From Patescibacteria group bacterium (GTDB lineage Bacteria > Patescibacteriota > Microgenomatia > UBA8517), in contig JBBRBD010000006.1 of NCBI GenBank assembly GCA_038206135.1, forward strand, positions 1-62,774: a stretch of 62,774 nucleotides of DNA, read 5' to 3'. The position numbers were made by a program, and so were the translations under genes. Position 1 is the first letter of the stretch; each line of letters starts with the position of its first letter. The notes beneath the pieces were generated by a model. That model made no database searches and had not been told where the DNA came from. It saw nothing but the letters and a program-made list of their open reading frames with translations. This document shows, piece after piece, positions 7,880-36,865 of this stretch.

Positions 7880-9802
7880 GTGAGGCTCACTGTCATATTC
7901 TCATTATTAATAACTAGTTTTTGTTTAGTATTTTTGCCCCACACCACTTTCGCCCACGACTCCTTTGTCACCATTGTTAACCCCGTTCGAATTTCAGCCT
8001 ACACAACGGATGTCTCAAAAAGCATTCAAGCGCAAGCTGCAGTTGTTGCAACTTTTAATTTTCCCGCGACTTGGCTTCTAACCCCTGAAGTACTTGATAC
8101 CCCAACAGCCATAACAGAACTTAAAAAACTTCCCACAACTAACGAACTGGGACTCTTCCTTGAAATTTCAGAAAAACTCGCAAACGACGCACAAGTTTCG
8201 TATAAAAAGCCAGAACACTGGTATCACCCAAATGCACTGTTTTTGTCAGGATACACACAAAGCGAGCGCATAAAGCTCATCGATACACTCTTTAAAAAAT
8301 TCAAAGAGCAGTTTAGATATTTTCCAACTTCAGTCGGGTCGTGGGGGACAGATAGCTTTAGCCTTTCATATATGCAAAAAACATATGGAGTGACCGCGAA
8401 CCTCATGTGTACTGACCAATATGCAACAGATAACTACCAACTCTGGGGACAATTCTGGCAAGCTCCGTATTACCCTTCAAAAATACACGCAGGAGAACCG
8501 GGAACAATAGAATCAGAAATACCAATCGTTGAAATGCAGTGGGCTCCCCGCGACCCCCTCCATGGATATGAATCCAGTTTATATAGTACCCAGGATTACT
8601 TTACCGTAAAGGACAACTTAGGAATAGATTACTTTCAAAAACTTATTGAGAGTTATCTATTTGATGAGCATAATTCATTCGGACAAGTTGTCGTCGGACT
8701 TGAAGGCGACTTTAACCCTGAAACGTATTCACAACACTTCAAAGAACAACTTACGGTTGTTTCAAATCTACAAAAAGATAAAGGAGTAAAAGTCACCAAC
8801 ATGAAAGATTTTTCAAGTTGGTACAAAAATAACTTTAAAGTTACCCCACCAACTCATTTTGTAACAAAGGATCTACTCGGGGGGCCTGTAACCACAGAAT
8901 GGTATGAGTCGACAAGCTATAGAATTGGAATGAAATACGAAGACAAAAATTCTCAGCTATCCATCTTTGATTTTAGAGTGTATGACCCAAACTTCATGGA
9001 GTCTTACTACTTGTTCCCAAACAGACAAAACACGCTTTCCCTGGTAATTCCCAGTGTCATTGACACAAAAATAAACCCCTCAGCAGTTTGGAACCTTAAT
9101 GTATCGAGACAAGACATTGAACTTTCCCCCACAGGCATACTCATAAAAAAACAAACTGATGTTCCTGCAAATATTAAAGACTCACCCCTAATCACCCTTT
9201 CCACAAACAATGAAAACACCACGATTACCCCGACTACATGGAATTATGCACCAGAGGGACAATCAGTAAAATATCTAAAACCAGAAGTTAAAAGTCTTCT
9301 TAACTCTCACAAAGTGCAACTCATTTTATTTTTAGGACTCTTACTGCTTCTCTTTATTTCATTCAAAGGCTATAGAAAAATAACAGTAGTACTCATCCTA
9401 TTCGGGTATTTATTCTTCCAGTCACAAGCATACGCCTCATATATAGTTCTCCCCGGAGAGCTGCAAGCTCTACAGTTTTTACGAGCGCAGCCAGAAGGCC
9501 GCGTTCTCACTAAAGGAACTGTTTGTTTGCAATGCGCCTTCCAATCTCACGACACTCCTGCAGCTTTCACCGGAGAGCGACGCTATGTCACTGATATTTC
9601 AAATAAAAAAATTGTCACCGATGACTCCGTGTTTACCGTAGACCGGGAGCACATTCATGAAGCTTTTCAAAAAACAGGAGCCACTTATATATACCTGGTA
9701 AAAATAGGAGACTACATTGAAAACCTTCCCTATTCACCAGGGGACTCAGGAGTCAAAAAAATATTTGAAAATGCAGACGCTACCATTTGGCAAAAAGAAT
9801 AA
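7880..9802 (+). CDS. Exported/membrane protein with glycoside hydrolase/deacetylase-like N-terminal domain
   Basis: Signal peptide, PATWLL, ELGLFLE, YFPTSVGSW motifs; two TM helices near aa 480-520. Confidence 0.65.
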   Translation: MRLTVIFSLLITSFCLVFLPHTTFAHDSFVTIVNPVRISAYTTDVSKSIQAQAAVVATFNFPATWLLTPEVLDTPTAITELKKLPTTNELGLFLEISEKLANDAQVSYKKPEHWYHPNALFLSGYTQSERIKLIDTLFKKFKEQFRYFPTSVGSWGTDSFSLSYMQKTYGVTANLMCTDQYATDNYQLWGQFWQAPYYPSKIHAGEPGTIESEIPIVEMQWAPRDPLHGYESSLYSTQDYFTVKDNLGIDYFQKLIESYLFDEHNSFGQVVVGLEGDFNPETYSQHFKEQLTVVSNLQKDKGVKVTNMKDFSSWYKNNFKVTPPTHFVTKDLLGGPVTTEWYESTSYRIGMKYEDKNSQLSIFDFRVYDPNFMESYYLFPNRQNTLSLVIPSVIDTKINPSAVWNLNVSRQDIELSPTGILIKKQTDVPANIKDSPLITLSTNNENTTITPTTWNYAPEGQSVKYLKPEVKSLLNSHKVQLILFLGLLLLLFISFKGYRKITVVLILFGYLFFQSQAYASYIVLPGELQALQFLRAQPEGRVLTKGTVCLQCAFQSHDTPAAFTGERRYVTDISNKKIVTDDSVFTVDREHIHEAFQKTGATYIYLVKIGDYIENLPYSPGDSGVKKIFENADATIWQKE

Positions 9803-9850
9803 AATTTCAGCTTGACATACGATTATAGGTTTGATATATTTCGTGCATCA

Positions 9851-9940
9851 GAGCCTATCGTCTAGCGGTTTAGGACGTACTGTTTTTCTTAAACCTTCGG
9901 GTTAAGAAGTAAAAGACGGGTTCGAATCCCGTTGGGCTCA
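9851..9940 (+). tRNA. tRNA-Glu-like gene whose anticodon loop is replaced by a cUUCGg-capped hairpin (non-canonical)
   Basis: Acceptor GAGCCTA/TGGGCTC, D arm GTCT/GGAC with A14,G18,G19,A21, T arm ACGGG-TTCGAAT-CCCGT; 39 nt between D and T arms instead of ~22-23. Confidence 0.75.
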
Positions 9941-10117
9941 CAATTTCATCATGGTTCAGCGCGACCCGTAGGCTCGTGCAGAAAAGCCCGATGTGGCTTG
10001 CTAATCGATCGTCGAATTGTTCGAAATGTCGTTTTAGAGCCTGTAATACACTATTTTTACTCCCAATTTTACCCTGAATTTAAGCCACGAGAAGAACACC
10101 TATCATAGGTGTTGAGG

Positions 10118-10969
10118 TTATTTCTGAATTGTTATCACTCTTTTTGACAAAATGAACTTTGTTTTTATGAATGACAATGCTTCTTGCCGTTCTTCAACTG
10201 TCCCGATCTGGAGAATGTGTAAAAGGTAGTTTTTCGTCATCTCATTTTTATCTGCTGAAGTCTGTGGGATTCTGTTAAATTCCCCTAAATGACCATCGAT
10301 AAACTCCTGATGAAGTACTTGGGTTTTAAGTCGATGATAACGTTCTATATCCTCCTGAATTTTCCTCGTTACTCCAGTGTGATTAAATTTGATTTTGTCG
10401 ATATTAGCGATTAATTGCTTGATTAAGTCATTTTCTGTAATATATGGCTCGTCACACTCATAGTTGAGTGACCTACCGCAGTGATCATAAGTATGTTTAA
10501 CAAATCCACCGTGTTTTAATTTCCTAAGTTTCTCTTCAGCCGTTACACCACCTCCGCATCCACCACATTTGAAGATACTTTTGAATGGGAAGATTTTATT
10601 TTTGTATCCTTTATCAGCAAGAAATGACTCGTCATACTTAGCTAGTAGATCCCAATCAAACTCACCAGTATTTTTATTGAGACGAAGGTTTAATTCCTTC
10701 TCTTTTTCAAGATCAGGAATATCGACATAGACTACGGGTACTGTCTTATATTCAAGTGCTTTAGCTACTTCCCATCTAAAGTGTCCACCAATAATGATGT
10801 TCTTTCGGTCTGTAGATGAATTAGCGATAACTGGGTCAACAAAACCAAAACGCAGTATACTTTGCTTTAGTTGTTCGCTAGCGACATCATCATGTTTGCG
10901 AGGATTGTAATCCGCTGGGATTAAATCGTTGATTAGTACTTCGACCGTTTGGATGGGTATATTTTTCAT
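10118..10969 (-). pseudogene. In-frame fusion of ParB-like N-terminal domain and large serine recombinase C-terminal zinc-ribbon/coiled-coil
   Basis: aa 1-119: YNPRKH...FGFVDPVI...IIGGHFRWEVA (ParB/Srx); aa 120-283: FKCGGCGGGVT...YDHC...C (recombinase Zn ribbon); no catalytic serine domain. Confidence 0.7.
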
Positions 10970-11015
10970 AATTTAACTAAATCTATCATGGGTTTTTGAA
11001 AAACTTGTTTATCAA

Positions 11016-11048
11016 CCCCCTTGACAACGGAGTTGTCACGGAGGGGGG
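11016..11048. repeat. Nested inverted repeat upstream of the ParB fusion
   Basis: CCCCCT-TGACAAC-GGA-GTTGTCA-CGG-AGGGGG. Confidence 0.7.
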
Positions 11049-11280
11049 TATTGATGTTCGATTAGGCCGTTAAATAGGACTATTCTTAATATTTGTTTTA
11101 TTTTCTGATGAATTTGAAAATACCCCTTGACAAGATTTTGTAGAAGTAATCCTTCGGGCTGTAATATCATTAAAAATGATGAGTAACAGTATAAGGACAT
11201 TTATCAACTTAATAGTGCTTGATGTCGTAAAAATGTTTCAGGAAGTGTATAAATTACCATAAATAGCTTAAAATACGGGC

Positions 11281-11949
11281 ATGAAAAACGAACGGCGAGA
11301 ATTTGAAGGCTATTTATTTACTAGAAAAGAAATTGAACCAATTCCAAACTTGGTTGTAGCCTTAGAAGGTCCTGTATGCGCTGGAAAAACTACGGTACTA
11401 GAAAGATTAAAAGCCGATGGAATTTCGATAATTCAGGAATACTCTGAATATGTCGATTCAGCTACAAGAGATTTTCCTAATTTTCCTCCAAAAGACGAAG
11501 AGTCAGCAAAGGGTAGTTTCAAATTTTTCTTTGATTTGGAACTAAAAAGACACTCAGATTTGAATAGACAAAACGGTAAATTTACTGTCATAGATCGTAG
11601 CGTTTATACACTATTAGCTTTTGAAGTTGGCGCATCAAGATTAACTGGAATTGACATACTACCATGGGCGATTGAATATCTTGAAGAGCATAAAAATGAA
11701 ATAATTATTCCAGAGCATGTTGTCTATATGGATAACTCCGTAGAAGAATCTCGCAGACGTGCAGAAGAGGGAAAAATTAGGATTGCCGAGTTTCTACTGA
11801 CTGATGAGTTTAATAAGGGATTTAGGAGTTTCTTTTTAGCGTTAAAGGAGAAAGCTCCAAATCTCATAGATATCGTTGATGCATCTAGAGAACCTGAAGA
11901 TGTTAGATTTAGCGTCAGTTCATTAATAACTGGCAAGGATACGATTTAG
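11281..11949 (+). CDS. Deoxynucleoside/thymidylate kinase family P-loop protein
   Basis: LEGPVCAGKTT Walker A, IDRS motif. Confidence 0.8.
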   Translation: MKNERREFEGYLFTRKEIEPIPNLVVALEGPVCAGKTTVLERLKADGISIIQEYSEYVDSATRDFPNFPPKDEESAKGSFKFFFDLELKRHSDLNRQNGKFTVIDRSVYTLLAFEVGASRLTGIDILPWAIEYLEEHKNEIIIPEHVVYMDNSVEESRRRAEEGKIRIAEFLLTDEFNKGFRSFFLALKEKAPNLIDIVDASREPEDVRFSVSSLITGKDTI

Positions 11950-12597
11950 AGCTGGCACAAAGCCTTTCACAGGTTCTATGTGTTCATACTTTATACCAAA
12001 GCTCTCTATTGTCTGTATGTCGTCTGAACTATCATCCACGAGAATACTTTCTCCGGGCTTTAAGTTGTTTTTCTTCAAGTATTCTGAAAAAAAGATGCTT
12101 TTTCCATCTTTATCTACATCCTTTTTCATTCCGCCTAAGTAATGAGAATTTAAAACATCATCAAACAGGTCGTCAATCTTCAAATATCTTTTTGTCCAAC
12201 GAGTAAAAGAGTCCATATTATCTGTTGCTACTACAACCTTTGAACCATTCTTCTGTAGCTTTTTAATCAAACCCGGGACATCCTTAGATACAAATTCCAT
12301 ATTCATACAGCTATGAATAAATTCATCAAATACATCTGAATAAGCAAGTTTACTTTTGTCAGATATCCTTCTAATAACATCTTCGGATTGAATTTCACCT
12401 TTCATCCATGGCTTAAGTAAGCCTCTAAGTTGTCCAAATAAAGTATTTTCTATCGTTGAAAACATTTTGGGATCAGTTTTCTCTAAATGTCCCCAGAATT
12501 TTGAACCCGAAAGCGTTCCATTCCAATCAATAAATACTGTTTTATAGGAGAGCTTATTCTTCTTGGAAGTATGGTTTATCTTTTTGGATTGCTTCAT
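11923..12597 (-). CDS. HAD-superfamily hydrolase
   Basis: Motif I variant FIDWNGTL, ATDN, motif IV LVDDS. Confidence 0.8.
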   Translation of the reverse strand: MKQSKKINHTSKKNKLSYKTVFIDWNGTLSGSKFWGHLEKTDPKMFSTIENTLFGQLRGLLKPWMKGEIQSEDVIRRISDKSKLAYSDVFDEFIHSCMNMEFVSKDVPGLIKKLQKNGSKVVVATDNMDSFTRWTKRYLKIDDLFDDVLNSHYLGGMKKDVDKDGKSIFFSEYLKKNNLKPGESILVDDSSDDIQTIESFGIKYEHIEPVKGFVPALNRILASY

Positions 12598-13519
12598 CTA
12601 TTGTTTGTTTAATGTATTGATTAAAATATATAGCATGTGTCTTCTGAAATAAAGAATCTCTTTTCCCCTTATCAATCGCTGATGACTCATCATATATATG
12701 AATTGAATAACGATCAACTACAGGAATAACAAACGCATTAAATTTAGCCATCAATTTAGTAACCAAAGATGTTTCTTCAAACCCATATGCTCCAAAATCT
12801 CCACTACATCCATTTACAGCAATCGATTGCACTTTCATTGAAGCAAAACATCCACCCAACACCATATTCGGTAAAACCCATGGACCTAGTTTTCCACTTT
12901 TAGGCCAGTCTTTAAGATTGTTCGTCTGCTTTAATAATCTGTACTCTGTATTTGCGAACCTTTCATCTTCATCTGAGCCTTTCCATGATTTTTGATAAAT
13001 ACAGTGGTCCCTAAAGTCATTTGTTATGTCAAAATTGAAATTATCTTTGTTCTTGCCTTCAACAAAGTTGAATAAACAAAATGTTATGCATGATCTACCC
13101 TGGCTTATTTGATTAAGATGTGTTTTAACCTGATTTTTAATTAATTCTGGGTAGATAATTACGTCTGAATCTATGAAGAAGATTAAATCATTCTTAGTTT
13201 GTTTTAAACCAAAGTTCCTTGAATAATATCGACCTTTATTTTTCTTGATATTTAATACTTTGACTTCATTAGCTAAATCTTTCTTAATACTTGTAATAGC
13301 TGTATACTGGATAGATCCATCATCTACAACAATTATTTCAAATAAACCGCCAAATTTTCGAGCTGAAGTAATAACTGATTTCAGACATTCGTTAATAGTA
13401 TTATTCGATTCAAAATAAGGTATTACGATGCTTACTGAAAGTTCTCTCTGCTCAAAGTTGTCAGTTAGCTTATAGTTATTATTAAAATTTAAGATTTGTT
13501 TTTCTAATGTTTTAGTCAT
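12554..13519 (-). CDS. Glycosyltransferase family 2
   Basis: SIVIPYFES, IIVVDDGS, FFIDSDV, GFEETSL. Confidence 0.85.
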   Translation of the reverse strand: MTKTLEKQILNFNNNYKLTDNFEQRELSVSIVIPYFESNNTINECLKSVITSARKFGGLFEIIVVDDGSIQYTAITSIKKDLANEVKVLNIKKNKGRYYSRNFGLKQTKNDLIFFIDSDVIIYPELIKNQVKTHLNQISQGRSCITFCLFNFVEGKNKDNFNFDITNDFRDHCIYQKSWKGSDEDERFANTEYRLLKQTNNLKDWPKSGKLGPWVLPNMVLGGCFASMKVQSIAVNGCSGDFGAYGFEETSLVTKLMAKFNAFVIPVVDRYSIHIYDESSAIDKGKRDSLFQKTHAIYFNQYIKQTIDEAIQKDKPYFQEE

Positions 13520-14822
13520 CTGTTTTTGGCTTGTGTATTTCAGATTTGTCTATTTTTGATCTTAGCTCATTAAATATTGAAAGATATGGTGGAATGCTGT
13601 TAAAAATAATTACAGGAACACTCAATAATAATATATAGACCATTTCCAAATAATTCTTATTGTTGTAATTCCAAAAGAAAATTAGATATTGAAGTGGACC
13701 ATATATGAAAATAACTAAATAGGATATTGTTATTAAAATCAAATCCGTAGTTATAAGTGGAGAAGCTAACAGCATAAGTACCAAAGGTCCTGATATTAGC
13801 CACGCTAAGGCGGAAAGAAGTCCTTCTAGTGTAAAGAGAAGTGGTGAGATGAGACTTTCAATTCCAAGCTGTTTTTTATTTTTTGCAACATACTGTAAAT
13901 ATGAAATATTTTTCATTGGCCCCCAGAACCAAATATATTTTTGATTCCACGACCCCCTTACTGTCTCAGGTGAATCAGCATACTCTAAAAACGGAATAGC
14001 AAAGATTCTATACCTCTTACTCCTTAATAAGAAGCCTAAAAACAGATCCTCTGTCATTGTTCCTGTCGGGAACTTACCAACACTTTCAAGCACAGACTTC
14101 TTTATTATCAGTCCATGACCAACAACATGAGCATAAGCATATTTTCTGAAGAAAACATTATTAGATATGGATTGTCTTAACAACCTTGCTATCTCGTGAG
14201 CAAATGTCCACCTGCTTTGCAAAATGGCTGAAATTTTCAAAAACGGATTAAGATCATTGTAGTTTTTAGTAAATACTGCTGGTTGCTGGAAGATTTCTGA
14301 TTCATTTTTCTGTACTGATCTTGAGACATAATCAAATGTGTTAAAGTGCGGACGTGAGTCAGCATTATATATAGCTATGTAAGAATCTTCTTTGATTTTA
14401 TCAATAGCGTAATTTAATTGATGAGCCATTTTCCCTTTTGCATCAGGATAGTTAATAACTTTTATGTAACCAGAATACTTATTGTTTTTAATAAAAGACT
14501 CTACTAATTTTTGAGTGGATTCACCGTTAAATTTCTTACTAAATTCCTTTTGTGTTGTAATAACAATAATTTTTATATTTTCCCTTCGAAAGTGCTTAAC
14601 AAAATACTCTAGTGTGGCAATGATTCTTTTTTGCTCTCGTAAAACAGGAATCAGAATATAAAACTTTGTTTTAGAATTCTTACTTAACTTTGATTCTGAA
14701 GAAGCTTTCTTCTGCCAATTAATTGAATTTAATAGAAAATATAAAGTAGATAATCCTCTTGCTAAAACAATGGCTAAAGTTATTTGTAAAATAATCATAG
14801 AGGTATAATATTTGATTCCCAA
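13512..14822 (-). CDS. Membrane glycosyltransferase family 2 (processive-type architecture)
   Basis: N-terminal TM, ILIPVLRE, YNADSRP, TEDL, QKYIW (QxxRW-like), C-terminal TMs. Confidence 0.8.
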   Translation of the reverse strand: MGIKYYTSMIILQITLAIVLARGLSTLYFLLNSINWQKKASSESKLSKNSKTKFYILIPVLREQKRIIATLEYFVKHFRRENIKIIVITTQKEFSKKFNGESTQKLVESFIKNNKYSGYIKVINYPDAKGKMAHQLNYAIDKIKEDSYIAIYNADSRPHFNTFDYVSRSVQKNESEIFQQPAVFTKNYNDLNPFLKISAILQSRWTFAHEIARLLRQSISNNVFFRKYAYAHVVGHGLIIKKSVLESVGKFPTGTMTEDLFLGFLLRSKRYRIFAIPFLEYADSPETVRGSWNQKYIWFWGPMKNISYLQYVAKNKKQLGIESLISPLLFTLEGLLSALAWLISGPLVLMLLASPLITTDLILITISYLVIFIYGPLQYLIFFWNYNNKNYLEMVYILLLSVPVIIFNSIPPYLSIFNELRSKIDKSEIHKPKTDD

Positions 14823-15679
14823 ACTTTCTTTTTCAAAGGATCTAGTCGATCTGCTTTATCTGACTCAAAGTTAAGATCAACAGTCATAAGATAAATTAAG
14901 TCCCAGCCGATCAGGAGAATACGGTGAATTTCAATCATTTCTTCTGTTATCCACTCTGAATTATATGACTTTAAAAATAGCTTTTCCTCTCGCTTAGTTA
15001 AAAAATGTAGATATATGAATTGAGAAAGATCGCAAGTAACAATATCCCATCGACAGTCAGCCCAGTCAATTATCATTATTTCTCCTTTTTTTGTGCGTAC
15101 AATATTAGTATCATTCAGGTCTCCATGTACAAGAGAACAATTATCTCTTGTGAAATTAATTTTTGAATTGAGTTTTTTCACTTTTTTAGTTATTTCATTA
15201 ATTGTCGTTTGAACTGTCCTGTTCACAAGATGTTTTTTTGTTTCCTTCAATTTCTCAAGTGGCTCTAATATAAAAACTTTCAATATCACCAACGGATTAT
15301 ATACACCATCAGTGAGGAGGTTGTCTTCAGGAATATGCTTGTTTGTCAGATTCTTCTGTTTTCTTGCATAATCATGAACCCTACTAAGAGCCTCAGCTGT
15401 GTCAATAATAAACTGATCTGTCTTTTTATATATTTTATGAAAGTTTACTTTCTCTTCTAAAATTAGACTGGGTAGAAGTTCATTTGGAAAGTGCAACTTT
15501 AAGTATGGACTTGGAGCTAAATTTATATTGGAGATAATTTTTTGTGCCCAATATTCCTTATCAAGAGTGCCTCGCCTCTCTGCTGGAAGCCAACGCAGAT
15601 ACAACAAACCCAAATCTAATGTTGAGTGTATAGTATCACGAAAATAATCTGTCCATTTATATTTATCTAATTTCATCAA
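14795..15679 (-). CDS. Aminoglycoside/choline kinase-like phosphotransferase
   Basis: VHGDLNDTNI (Brenner motif) and IIDWAD. Confidence 0.85.
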   Translation of the reverse strand: MMKLDKYKWTDYFRDTIHSTLDLGLLYLRWLPAERRGTLDKEYWAQKIISNINLAPSPYLKLHFPNELLPSLILEEKVNFHKIYKKTDQFIIDTAEALSRVHDYARKQKNLTNKHIPEDNLLTDGVYNPLVILKVFILEPLEKLKETKKHLVNRTVQTTINEITKKVKKLNSKINFTRDNCSLVHGDLNDTNIVRTKKGEIMIIDWADCRWDIVTCDLSQFIYLHFLTKREEKLFLKSYNSEWITEEMIEIHRILLIGWDLIYLMTVDLNFESDKADRLDPLKKKVWESNIIPL

Positions 15680-16388
15680 AATTTGTTAATTTCCATCCAT
15701 TTTCTTTTATTGTTTTGATTAATTTCACATCTCTTAACACAACCACCTGCATTTGTCTCTCAACAATATATGAACTATTAAGTGACTTGTCCGTTAGTCC
15801 AGGATGTAAGACAAATTCTGTAACCCCTTCAGGAGCTTCATGCATAATCTGGATTAAATGATCAATGTTAATCTGTAACTTATCGTAAAATCTAAACTCA
15901 GTGTGATTTGGGTGAGGAACACTTATAGGTTCCAAGTCTTTAAACCACCTAGTTGGCAATGAAACTTTTTCGATGTATTCTCTAAAGCTTTGTACGAAAT
16001 TAGGTATTTGGTAAAGAGGATGGTGAAAATTAACATGTGCCGGATCTGACCTGAATTTATGCTTAAATAATTCCAACTGCTTATCAAATTCAGCAAACAT
16101 CTCGTCGACTATTTCACTAGGCAAGGGCTCCTTGTTTTTATATGCCTTATTTATGATTCCAGATTTGCCAAAACTTTTGCTTTGATTAATAAAATCTCCC
16201 TCTCCTGAAACGTTTAAATGAATTCCAATAGAAATTCCTTTATCTGTTGCCTTCTTATATGCTTCGTCAACACAAGAACTAGTCACCATTAGACTAGCAC
16301 TCTTAACCAGAGTTGAACATTGCAGGATTCCATTGGTGGTCAGTGGTGAAAGACCAAGATCATCAGCATTAAAGATAAACTTTTTCAT
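15663..16388 (-). CDS. ChbG/YdjC-family carbohydrate deacetylase
   Basis: NADDLG, GIHLN, HVNFHH, EFVLHPG. Confidence 0.85.
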   Translation of the reverse strand: MKKFIFNADDLGLSPLTTNGILQCSTLVKSASLMVTSSCVDEAYKKATDKGISIGIHLNVSGEGDFINQSKSFGKSGIINKAYKNKEPLPSEIVDEMFAEFDKQLELFKHKFRSDPAHVNFHHPLYQIPNFVQSFREYIEKVSLPTRWFKDLEPISVPHPNHTEFRFYDKLQINIDHLIQIMHEAPEGVTEFVLHPGLTDKSLNSSYIVERQMQVVVLRDVKLIKTIKENGWKLTNFDEIR

Positions 16389-16601
16389 GCAATCATATTA
16401 TATGCTTTTGTGGCCAAAAAAGCCTCTGTTATGTGGTAGAAGAAATAATATATCACTATAATTTTGAGACTCGCTCTTTTTATAGTGTCTCATTTGTCTC
16501 GTTTAGCCTGAAGATGATACACTCAGAAAGACAGTGGTTATAAACCAAGTTTGCAAGCTTTGCTTATGGGACTAAACGGTTCCAGACCCGTATGGCTCAA
16601 T

Positions 16602-16675
16602 CGGACTGTAGCTCGGTGGAATGAGCACTTGTGCATAGACGCAAGAGGGCGTGGGTTCGAATCCTACCAGTTCGA
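16602..16675 (+). tRNA. Non-canonical/pseudo tRNA with 8-nt anticodon loop (C1-G72, A73; Pro-like acceptor)
   Basis: CGGACTG/CAGTTCG, GCTC/GAGC, CTTGT/GCAAG enclosing GCATAGAC, GTGGG-TTCGAAT-CCTAC; lacks U33 and A14. Confidence 0.65.
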
Positions 16676-16760
16676 ATAGGCCAGAAGTGGCCCACCAGAA
16701 CGATCCCCAACGGTTGACTGGTCGAGCGTTATTGCTGGACCAGTCAATGAAAATTTTTGA

Positions 16761-16836: not shown

Positions 16837-16907
16837 GTCCTCGTAGCCAAGTGGTAAGGCATATCCCTGCAAAGGATATATCAGCGGTTCGAATCCGTTC
16901 GAGGACT
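16837..16907 (+). tRNA. tRNA-Cys(GCA)
   Basis: GTCCTCG/CGAGGAC, anticodon arm TATCC-CTGCAAA-GGATA, U73 discriminator, CCA not encoded. Confidence 0.95.
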
Positions 16908-35938: not shown

Positions 35939-36865
35939 ATGAAATGGAAAACGCTCGTTGTTCTCCTGATTTCAATTTTTGTAATGAGCTTAAGCGGCAC
36001 TACATTAGCACAAACGCAATCTGTCACCGTCACGAGTATCTCGGTTGACACCACAGCAAAGTCACCACTTGTCTGCCTGAACATGGACCTCACCCTGAAT
36101 GGTCTTGCCAACAAATACACCATAGTCGCGGCCATTCCGGTCAATGACAAGGGGGATCAGATTGTTAACACCAGTGGAGACCCAAGCGACACCTGGAAAA
36201 CAGGAACTGTCCTGAGCCACGTTAAGCTTGACAAAGATTCGACGAATGTTGCCAAGTGGAACAATATCAAGGTTTGTGTAAATACAGATCACTTTCAACT
36301 CTCTGAACAGATGTACACCTTTTATGTGGTACTCGCGTTCTTTGACGAAAGTAATGGCAACTTGATCGGTGATCTATACGACACGTCTCAAAAAGTAGGG
36401 GAGTTCACTATTCTCGCGGCCACTGCACCACAAGTCAGAATTACGAACGTAGTAAAAACGGTTGGACCAAACCTTGCCATTGGAAGTATTGATATAGGGG
36501 TCACATATACGGTTACGTTTGAAGCCTGGAGGCTGAAAGGAAAAGCACTAACCGTAAATATGTTGCCCGTCACAAAAGACGGAACACACGTAAAAAACTT
36601 AAGCCCAAAGTCGAATAATCGAACGGTTGGCGGAGATATTGTTTCAACGCTTATTGTAACCCCTTTGAAAAATGATCAAATTTGGGGCGACTGGCAAAAT
36701 GATTCAACCAGTCAATCACTTTCGTTTTATGTATCGTTTTACGATATTCCGATTGGTACTATCTACCCGTCGTTCGTTGTTGTCAATTCAGACAAAAAGA
36801 CTACGGTCCTCTTAGAGAGGTCGTTTATAGACGAGAATCTGTCTGTGGTCGTAAAACCATCATAA
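35939..36865 (+). CDS. Secreted protein with two repeated beta-rich domains
   Basis: AAGGAG SD, signal peptide MKWKTLVVLLISIF...TLA, internal similarity between halves. Confidence 0.75.
   Translation: MKWKTLVVLLISIFVMSLSGTTLAQTQSVTVTSISVDTTAKSPLVCLNMDLTLNGLANKYTIVAAIPVNDKGDQIVNTSGDPSDTWKTGTVLSHVKLDKDSTNVAKWNNIKVCVNTDHFQLSEQMYTFYVVLAFFDESNGNLIGDLYDTSQKVGEFTILAATAPQVRITNVVKTVGPNLAIGSIDIGVTYTVTFEAWRLKGKALTVNMLPVTKDGTHVKNLSPKSNNRTVGGDIVSTLIVTPLKNDQIWGDWQNDSTSQSLSFYVSFYDIPIGTIYPSFVVVNSDKKTTVLLERSFIDENLSVVVKPS

Follow-up and report, generated by a model that had tools for sequence, protein, structure and literature searches.

The locus and its tRNA-shaped gene

The window, that is the whole 62,774-nt stretch of DNA analysed here, contains a tRNA-shaped gene of glutamate type, hereafter tRNA1, which is unable to read codons. 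The order of features at the locus is a promoter, tRNA1, 6.7 kb of low-GC DNA, a second aberrant tRNA gene (tRNA2) and a tRNA-Cys gene (Table 1). Pfam searches placed DnaE, L19, a conserved 640-aa protein and the cargo of a genomic island in the neighbourhood of tRNA1. The genome holding the gene is 1.09 Mb in size with a GC content of 38%, its relatives ranging from 0.4 to 2.1 Mb.

Table 1. Features of the tRNA1 locus and of the loci compared with it
Feature	Position	Strand	Remarks
640-aa protein gene	7880-9802		no Pfam domain
Sigma-70-type promoter	9812-9840	+	TTGACA-17-TATATT, extended -10 TG, 11/12 matches
tRNA1	9851-9940	+	acceptor 9851-9857/9933-9939; discriminator A at 9940; no encoded CCA
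Glu-type D arm	9860-9876	+	GUCU/GGAC stem with U13.G22, four pairs, loop AGCGGUUUA
34-nt arm replacing the 17-nt anticodon arm	9878-9911	+	UUCG loop at 9896-9899
UUUUCUU, likely remnant of a tRNA-Glu(UUC) anticodon loop	9884-9890	+	now mostly base-paired
23-nt quasi-palindrome TTCTTAA-ACCTTCGGGT-TAAGAA	9886-9908	+	right arm is the inverted complement of the putative loop remnant
T arm, acceptor 3' strand and discriminator	9916-9940	+	bacterial half of the island attL
Degraded serine-integrase island, 6.7 kb	9941-16599	.	GC 30-36%, flanks 40-42%
Island left end, conserved	9941-10010	+	..GGTTCAGCGCGACCCGT.GGC..GAAAAGCCCGAT..GCTTGCTAAT
Chimeric ORF, 283 aa	10118-10969	-	ParB_N and C-terminal zinc-ribbon part of a large serine recombinase (Pfam)
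Island right end, about 90 nt conserved (alignment A2)	16462-16599	+	ends in a tRNA-3'-end look-alike ..ACGGTTCCAGACCCGTATGGCTCA
tRNA2, second aberrant tRNA	16601-16676	+	Rfam tRNA, 45.7 bits
tRNA-Cys	16837-16907		follows tRNA2
Right-end counterparts, other genomes	L125:17850-17981; L126:1879-2012 (-); L127:1934-2065 (-); L120:1497-1629 (-)
Right end in G088			3.0 kb downstream of a normal tRNA-Glu, anticodon CUC
Right end in G101			14.6 kb downstream of a normal tRNA-Glu, anticodon CUC
Right end in G130			1.35 kb downstream of a normal tRNA-Glu, anticodon UUC
Right end in G074			about 0.7 kb downstream of a normal tRNA-Glu, anticodon CUC
Shewanella jiangmenensis tRNA-Glu copy	L032:1000-1087		in a tRNA-Ala/Glu tandem array
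Streptomyces/Saccharothrix tRNA-Glu-like genes	L007-L073, e.g. L046:6323-6407, L010:7860-7944, L063:2155-2239

Against the Rfam tRNA model (RF00005), tRNA1 gave an end-to-end match over model positions 1-71 with a score of 40.8 bits (gathering score 29), and when the thresholds were relaxed the tRNA model was the only one to match around the gene. The match contains an anticodon loop of 22 nt, compared with 5 nt in the model. ARAGORN under default settings did not call the gene; with introns permitted, it was returned as 'tRNA-Stop(tta) i(35,17)', a gene with a 17-nt 'intron' and the anticodon UUA.

Outside the anticodon arm the gene shows no decay at all, as 16 of 16 body pairs and the bases of the tertiary contacts are intact. 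The acceptor stem (GAGCCUA/UGGGCUC, RNA positions 1-7/83-89 numbered from 9851) forms seven pairs with a single G.U, U8, A14 and G18G19 are all kept, the variable region has 4 nt, and a T stem of ACGGG/CCCGU carries the loop UUCGAAU. Like most tRNAs of this genome, tRNA1 has no encoded CCA. The cloverleaf was retained in the minimum-energy fold, with a z-score of -2.15 for the whole RNA. The D arm fits the glutamate type, in which a short D stem with U13.G22 is part of the pattern UCGUCUAG..GG...AGGAC, and it is nearly identical to that of the genome's own tRNA-Glu(UUC) and to the tRNA-Glu D arms found across the family. Nearly all family tRNA-Glu genes that were retrieved have the acceptor stem GGCCCCA/UGGGGUC, from which tRNA1 differs at three pairs, one of them a flip from C3-G70 to G3-C70; all three are still paired in tRNA1. 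Such compensated divergence implies that structural constraint acted on the acceptor stem for long at some time.

The promoter ends 10 nt before the first base of tRNA1, and its motif TTGAC..TTATAGGTTT..TATA occurs only once in the genome, at this locus. An earlier note, made from the letters alone, had described a tRNA-Glu-like gene with intact acceptor, D and T arms and invariant bases, preceded by a -10 element. This description was borne out by the Rfam score and by our reading of the gene, and the -10 element proved to be part of a full promoter.

The sealed anticodon arm

The arm starts at its base with a 4-bp helix (UACU/AGUA), above which a 5-nt bulge (GUUUU) interrupts the 5' strand. 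A 6-bp helix follows and, after a single bulged A, two further pairs lead to the UUCG loop and its closing C-G pair. The irregular extended stem with a UUCG cap that had been claimed for the gene was thus recovered as drawn, and the claim that it has no readable anticodon also held, the loop being sealed and default ARAGORN finding no gene. A decoding tRNA has a 5-bp anticodon stem and a 7-nt loop with U33 and a 3-nt anticodon, whereas in tRNA1 a 4-nt loop closes the arm. In the same way, a tRNA-Glu presents UUC or CUC within a 7-nt loop, whereas the only UUC in this arm lies inside the helix.

The segment UUUUCUU, on the 5' side of the arm, is identical at 6 of 7 positions to UUUUCAU, the anticodon loop in the normal tRNA-Glu(UUC) of this genome; from this likeness it is likely to be the old anticodon loop of a tRNA-Glu(UUC). 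The quasi-palindrome which overlaps it does not behave as a repeat element, as there was no second copy in the genome, and no credible copies of the hairpin were found in 60 relatives when up to three mismatches were allowed. The string CCUUCGGGUU may resemble a hairpin of the E. coli 16S rRNA; its origin as a copy of that hairpin was considered and dropped, no such copy having been found in the genome.

The arm is AU-rich in composition. The 34 nt fold with -7.2 kcal/mol and a z-score of -1.43, and 16 of 200 shuffled sequences were equally stable, which removes the ground for the earlier description of the insert as 'thermodynamically optimised'.

tRNA complement of the genome and the question of splicing

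A survey of the whole genome with ARAGORN recovered a full tRNA set, including tRNA-Glu(UUC) at C3:85532-85606, the presence of which the earlier note had proposed to check, and tRNA-Glu(CUC) at C4:47379-47452. As canonical genes for both glutamate tRNAs are located elsewhere, translation is independent of tRNA1, and tRNA1 is a third, dispensable gene of glutamate type. The survey also contained a class II tRNA with the anticodon ACU (G000 C2:36444-36531), and a 'tRNA-Gln' with a 1525-nt intron on contig C11, which was discarded as a false call since it had no Rfam match. A sub-threshold group I intron match of 36 bits lies near tRNA-Ala(UGC), at G000 C3:59371-59825 on the reverse strand.

The hairpin could be envisaged as an intron, the 'tiny intron' of the earlier note, removed from a precursor to leave either a decoding tRNA-Glu(UUC) or a tRNA(UUA) that reads UAA. 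ARAGORN does fit a 17-nt intron that yields UUA, and, judging from the sequence, taking out 16 nt at a different position would give UUUUCUU, in which UUC is properly placed. However, the bulge-helix-bulge structure is absent, since the 3' strand of the arm is fully paired and the two bulges, of 5 nt and 1 nt, are both on the 5' strand. Neither the tRNA splicing endonuclease (PF01974) nor the RtcB ligase (PF01139) was found in the genome, which is scored as 100% complete, while control genomes were positive for both. An insert of 16-17 nt is also far too short for a group I intron, whose catalytic core alone takes about 200 nt or more, and the sole match to RF00028 was sub-threshold and lay on another contig. 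A restored arm would, moreover, keep either a G.A mismatch or a bulge, together with U37. As for suppression, all three stop codons are used in this genome and TAA is the main one; it closes 327 of the 546 ORFs of at least 250 codons, so a UAA-reading tRNA would be expected to do harm. An intron or suppressor reading is thus unlikely, splicing of the hairpin from a precursor is in our estimate very improbable, and the 'tRNA-Stop(tta)' call of ARAGORN is a forced fit.

Genes and tRNAs flanking tRNA1

The 640-aa protein encoded upstream has 669 homologues at an E-value of 1e-50 or better among Patescibacteria-type bacteria, with source names such as Patescibacteria, Microgenomates, Woesebacteria and Daviesbacteria, and in a search of 5.8 billion proteins the closest of them were about 51-52% identical or less. 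These names mark the host as a bacterium of CPR type. tRNA1 was absent from the homologous 640-aa loci that were inspected, and one further contig with a homologue showed a different context. A genome of the same genus (G002) has the orthologous 640-aa gene, followed by a promoter with the same TTGAC..TATA motif and then by tRNA-Phe and tRNA-Cys.

ARAGORN reported tRNA2 as 'tRNA-???' with a two-base anticodon, and its anticodon arm can be drawn either as a 6-bp stem with a 6-nt loop or as a 5-bp stem with the 8-nt loop GCAUAGAC. Since tRNA2 begins 1 nt past the right end of the island, it would have adjoined tRNA1 almost without a spacer before the island was inserted.

A degraded serine-integrase island begins at the discriminator base

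Sequence of one island family starts directly past the discriminator base both of tRNA1 and of the normal tRNA-Glu genes of G088, G101 and G130, as judged from an alignment of the left ends made by eye against the sequence that follows tRNA-Glu in these three genomes. The right end is likewise conserved, its final 39 nt (16561-16599) being 95-97% identical in three other genera (G088, G101 and G130), and a normal tRNA-Glu stood at the left junction in four of the five related loci examined, these four coming from four related genera. From the conservation of these ends, the islands can be taken to define a family that targets the 3' ends of tRNA-Glu genes in Patescibacteria-type bacteria. The roughly 90 nt conserved at the right end far exceed the typical length of a serine-integrase attachment site; they contain GAGAC/GTCTC inverted repeats and a possible TATAAT, and may double as a small-RNA gene or a regulatory region. 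At G000 C11:39677-39708 lies a 32-nt partial copy of the right end.

In G101 the first gene past the tRNA-Glu encodes a 459-aa large serine recombinase with Resolvase, Recombinase and Zn_ribbon_recom domains. The corresponding part of the island at tRNA1 holds the chimeric ORF, of which residues 120-283 share 82% identity with residues 296-459 of the G101 recombinase (164 residues), and residues 1-120 share about 62% with the ParB_N-methylase of the G101 island, at its N-terminus. This recombinase/ParB fusion implies that an internal deletion took the catalytic part of the integrase and left the island stranded; with the catalytic domain missing, the integrase at this locus is dead. The cargo genes encode a dNK/AAA_28-like kinase, a HAD hydrolase, two family-2 glycosyltransferases, a choline/aminoglycoside-kinase-like protein and a 241-aa protein of unknown function. 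The cargo (11281-16388) resembles a surface-decoration operon.

Among the normal target tRNAs of G088, G101 and G130, the T stem varies from host to host and stays paired, which places the crossover on its 3' side, within the acceptor strand or at the discriminator base. This position has two consequences. The tRNA-like tip of the right end, which could pass for a far-side 'duplicate of the tRNA 3' end', is the element's own attachment-site arm and not a displaced piece of the tRNA; and, since some 30 nt separate the crossover from the hairpin, the arm cannot be the work of the integrase. Integration also shows that the T arm and acceptor end of tRNA1 passed for those of a tRNA-Glu. Two further candidate observations were rejected: a 13-mer matching the left junction at 36497 was a chance match within coding sequence, and the impression that the 3' end of tRNA1 is nearer to the island arm than to a normal tRNA-Glu was dropped after a hand count of 19/25 against 18/25.

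Search for relatives of the sealed gene

A blastn search of 40 relatives with a 91-nt query returned only the 5' half of ordinary tRNA-Glu genes and unrelated T arms. We then relied on a covariance model of our own (R1), which scores 120.9 bits on tRNA1 itself; on 124 other family genomes it gave 60 bits at most, all from normal tRNAs of 72-76 nt, with no copy bearing the hairpin. The search for homologues with covariation in the hairpin, which the earlier note had put forward, thus produced no hairpin-bearing relative in these 124 genomes. Scans for the acceptor and D-stem pattern found no relative of tRNA1 in viral contigs and 400 genomes of the phylum, and pattern scans were equally negative in 185,579 species genomes and in metagenome contigs, which were scanned twice, the second scan giving eight unrelated odd genes of Glu or Gln type. 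Literature searches yielded no description of the RNA. tRNA1 is therefore a singleton among the collections searched.

An assembly artefact is argued against by sequencing run SRR19962010, the only other assembly reached by exact-protein look-up of the neighbours, in which the flanking genes are 316 nt apart, exactly as at the tRNA1 locus.

A broader scan, for a Glu-type D arm joined to an oversized anticodon region, gave 71 loci. Among these were many archaeal introns as well as assembly duplications, and a small number of bacterial genes shared the design of tRNA1. Isolated Glu- and Gln-type tRNA genes with oversized or re-paired anticodon regions were also seen in unrelated bacteria and metagenome contigs (L105:6017-6081 and L111:146-210, both on the reverse strand; L006 with L104; L029; L009; L069); they include an AT-rich pair (5-nt offset, 8-nt loop) and a Gln-like tRNA gene with a 26-nt insert from a member of the Tepidisphaeraceae.

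Comparison with known systems

Set beside canonical tRNA-Glu (RF00005, and the two normal genes of this genome, Glu(UUC) and Glu(CUC)), tRNA1 is alike in the D arm, the 4-nt variable region, the T loop UUCGAAU, the discriminator A, the lack of an encoded CCA, the possession of its own promoter and the use as an attachment site by an island. It differs in having a sealed arm of 34 nt instead of 17 nt, and in the acceptor sequence GAGCCUA instead of GGCCCCA.

The nearest analogue to the lesion was found in Shewanella jiangmenensis, where a tRNA-Glu copy has its UUC sealed by an inserted inverted repeat with a small-loop cap, as in tRNA1. This copy is redundant, standing beside intact tRNA-Glu genes. 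Unlike tRNA1, it has mismatches in the acceptor and T stems and has lost the cloverleaf fold, and by analogy it would show how such a lesion looks once decay has gone further.

A different picture is offered by tRNA-Glu-like genes of Streptomyces and Saccharothrix (alignment A3), which share with tRNA1 a Glu-type D arm, a normal T arm and a longer, closed hairpin. In contrast to tRNA1, they form a family conserved in several species with up to two copies per genome, and their arm, made of an outer stem and an inner stem capped by GUUCGC, shows covariation in both stems. In alignment A3 pairs of the extended arm and of the T stem covary, for example from CG to GC in 8 of 18 sequences, the D and T arms being otherwise invariant. 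Their hairpin has no sequence relation to that of tRNA1. Rfam gave either a generic tRNA match or none for these genes and no specific family, and no common neighbour gene was found, their contexts falling into small syntenic groups. The conservation of sealed-arm tRNA-Glu-like genes in Streptomyces implies that such a design can be selected, and this covarying family merits a separate study.

Other known systems resemble tRNA1 in part. YrlA Y RNAs have a tRNA-like acceptor/T/D architecture with no usable anticodon, and they end in a Ro-binding stem, have a closed acceptor-like stem and need Ro60. In contrast, the acceptor stem of tRNA1 has open ends, and Ro60 (PF05731) was not found in the genome. 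Archaeal bulge-helix-bulge introns also add nucleotides to the anticodon arm of Glu- and Gln-type tRNAs, but the two 3-nt bulges around a 4-bp helix are missing from tRNA1, and the host is a bacterium in which neither endonuclease nor RtcB was found. Serine-recombinase islands at tRNA and tmRNA genes are comparable in that a recombinase adjoins the small-RNA gene and a look-alike of the RNA 3' end stands at the far end; here, the host is of Patescibacteria type, the target is tRNA-Glu and all that is left of the recombinase is a C-terminal piece within a fusion.

Reviews of irregular tRNAs (PMC7609411) cover tRNA-Sec, tRNA-Pyl and allo-tRNAs whose anticodon stems have 6 bp or are broken, as well as irregular tRNA-like sequences with a supposed link to mobile elements or toxin-antitoxin systems; the design of tRNA1 is not described among the irregular tRNAs reviewed there. 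A recent preprint on bacterial tRNA mimics deals with families other than tRNA1. In our view tRNA1 is best classed with tRNA genes whose anticodon arm has been disabled, here on the border of an island that targets tRNA genes.

Origin and status of tRNA1

The account that we favour, as somewhat more probable than its opposite, is that tRNA1 is a young non-decoding relic, i.e. a pseudogene, at the edge of the island, and probably still transcribed. On this account, a supernumerary Glu-type tRNA gene would have lost decoding through an insert of 16-17 nt in its anticodon loop. The insert would carry the inverted complement of the loop, with UUCUUAA and UUAAGAA placed around ACC-UUCG-GGU, so that the former UUC anticodon would be buried in a 9-bp helix under the tetraloop. 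A template switch at a hairpin already present might be expected to leave a quasi-palindrome of this kind. The T arm and acceptor end would then have become the attachment site of an island with a tRNA-Glu-targeting large serine recombinase, and the island would later have lost its integrase by internal deletion. From the intact body and strong promoter, we infer that the gene is probably transcribed, trimmed by RNase P and at its 3' end, and CCA-added, to give a stable RNA that does not decode. The status as a singleton, the redundancy of the gene and the ordinary stability of the arm suggest a relic; these findings, apart from the redundancy, also turn against the earlier opinion that the insert looked 'more selected than decayed'. 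The mutational signature, the Shewanella analogue and the position at a degrading island point, by analogy, in the same direction. Against a relic stand the flawless body outside the arm and the compensated differences in the acceptor stem, as well as the classical C(UUCG)G loop, which would rarely be hit by accidental duplication.

These same features would be in keeping with a non-decoding tRNA mimic maintained by selection, acting either as a decoy or sponge or by carrying an aminoacyl group for uses outside translation. Such an RNA would keep the features by which RNase P, the CCA-adding enzyme and the modification enzymes recognise a tRNA, and perhaps those used by GluRS or an acceptor-end toxin, while the rigid sealed arm would bar it from the ribosome. 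The intact cloverleaf and tertiary bases, the compensation in the acceptor stem, the strong and conserved promoter and the cUUCGg cap would all be accommodated, and the Streptomyces and Saccharothrix family shows that sealed, covarying tRNA-Glu-like RNAs are maintainable. On the other hand, the 124 family genomes, the 400 phylum genomes and the pattern scans of genomes, metagenomes and viruses yielded no copy; the arm is weak and rich in A and U; the neighbours include no evident partner gene, and the 640-aa protein occurs in relatives without the RNA; and Ro60 was not detected in the genome. Bacterial GluRS is strongly anticodon-dependent, and charging of tRNA1 with glutamate is doubtful. We therefore regard a selected mimic as rather unlikely, and a shade less credible still is its more specific form, in which a promoter-driven, chromosomal tRNA-Glu body barred from the ribosome would serve as a decoy or cofactor for an acceptor-end toxin, for GluRS or for a Glu-tRNA-dependent enzyme. 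We think it quite improbable that the arm is a recombination product made by the integrase, or that the gene is kept purely as an attachment site. Use of the gene as a site fits well with an island that begins exactly at the discriminator base and belongs to a family targeting tRNA-Glu genes. However, the distance of about 30 nt between crossover and hairpin speaks against the integrase as maker of the arm, and selection does not maintain a host gene for the benefit of an element, whose integrase is in any case already dead here. Of the roles proposed in the earlier note, that of an integration site has thus gained support as far as use is concerned, while retention 'only' for that use is improbable; the intron was rejected, and the selected mimic keeps the low standing given above.

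As a young relic, tRNA1 would offer a clean case of an anticodon loop sealed by inverted duplication, of a kind that annotation pipelines will miss or will mislabel as an intron-containing suppressor. The island beside it adds a putative tRNA-Glu-targeting serine-integrase family with both ends conserved, and a dated example of integrase loss. If the RNA of tRNA1 is functional, non-decoding tRNA mimics would be extended to a bacterium with a minimal genome, and if the sealed arm is selected, it would be a cellular counterpart to the conserved tRNA-Glu-like family of Streptomyces.
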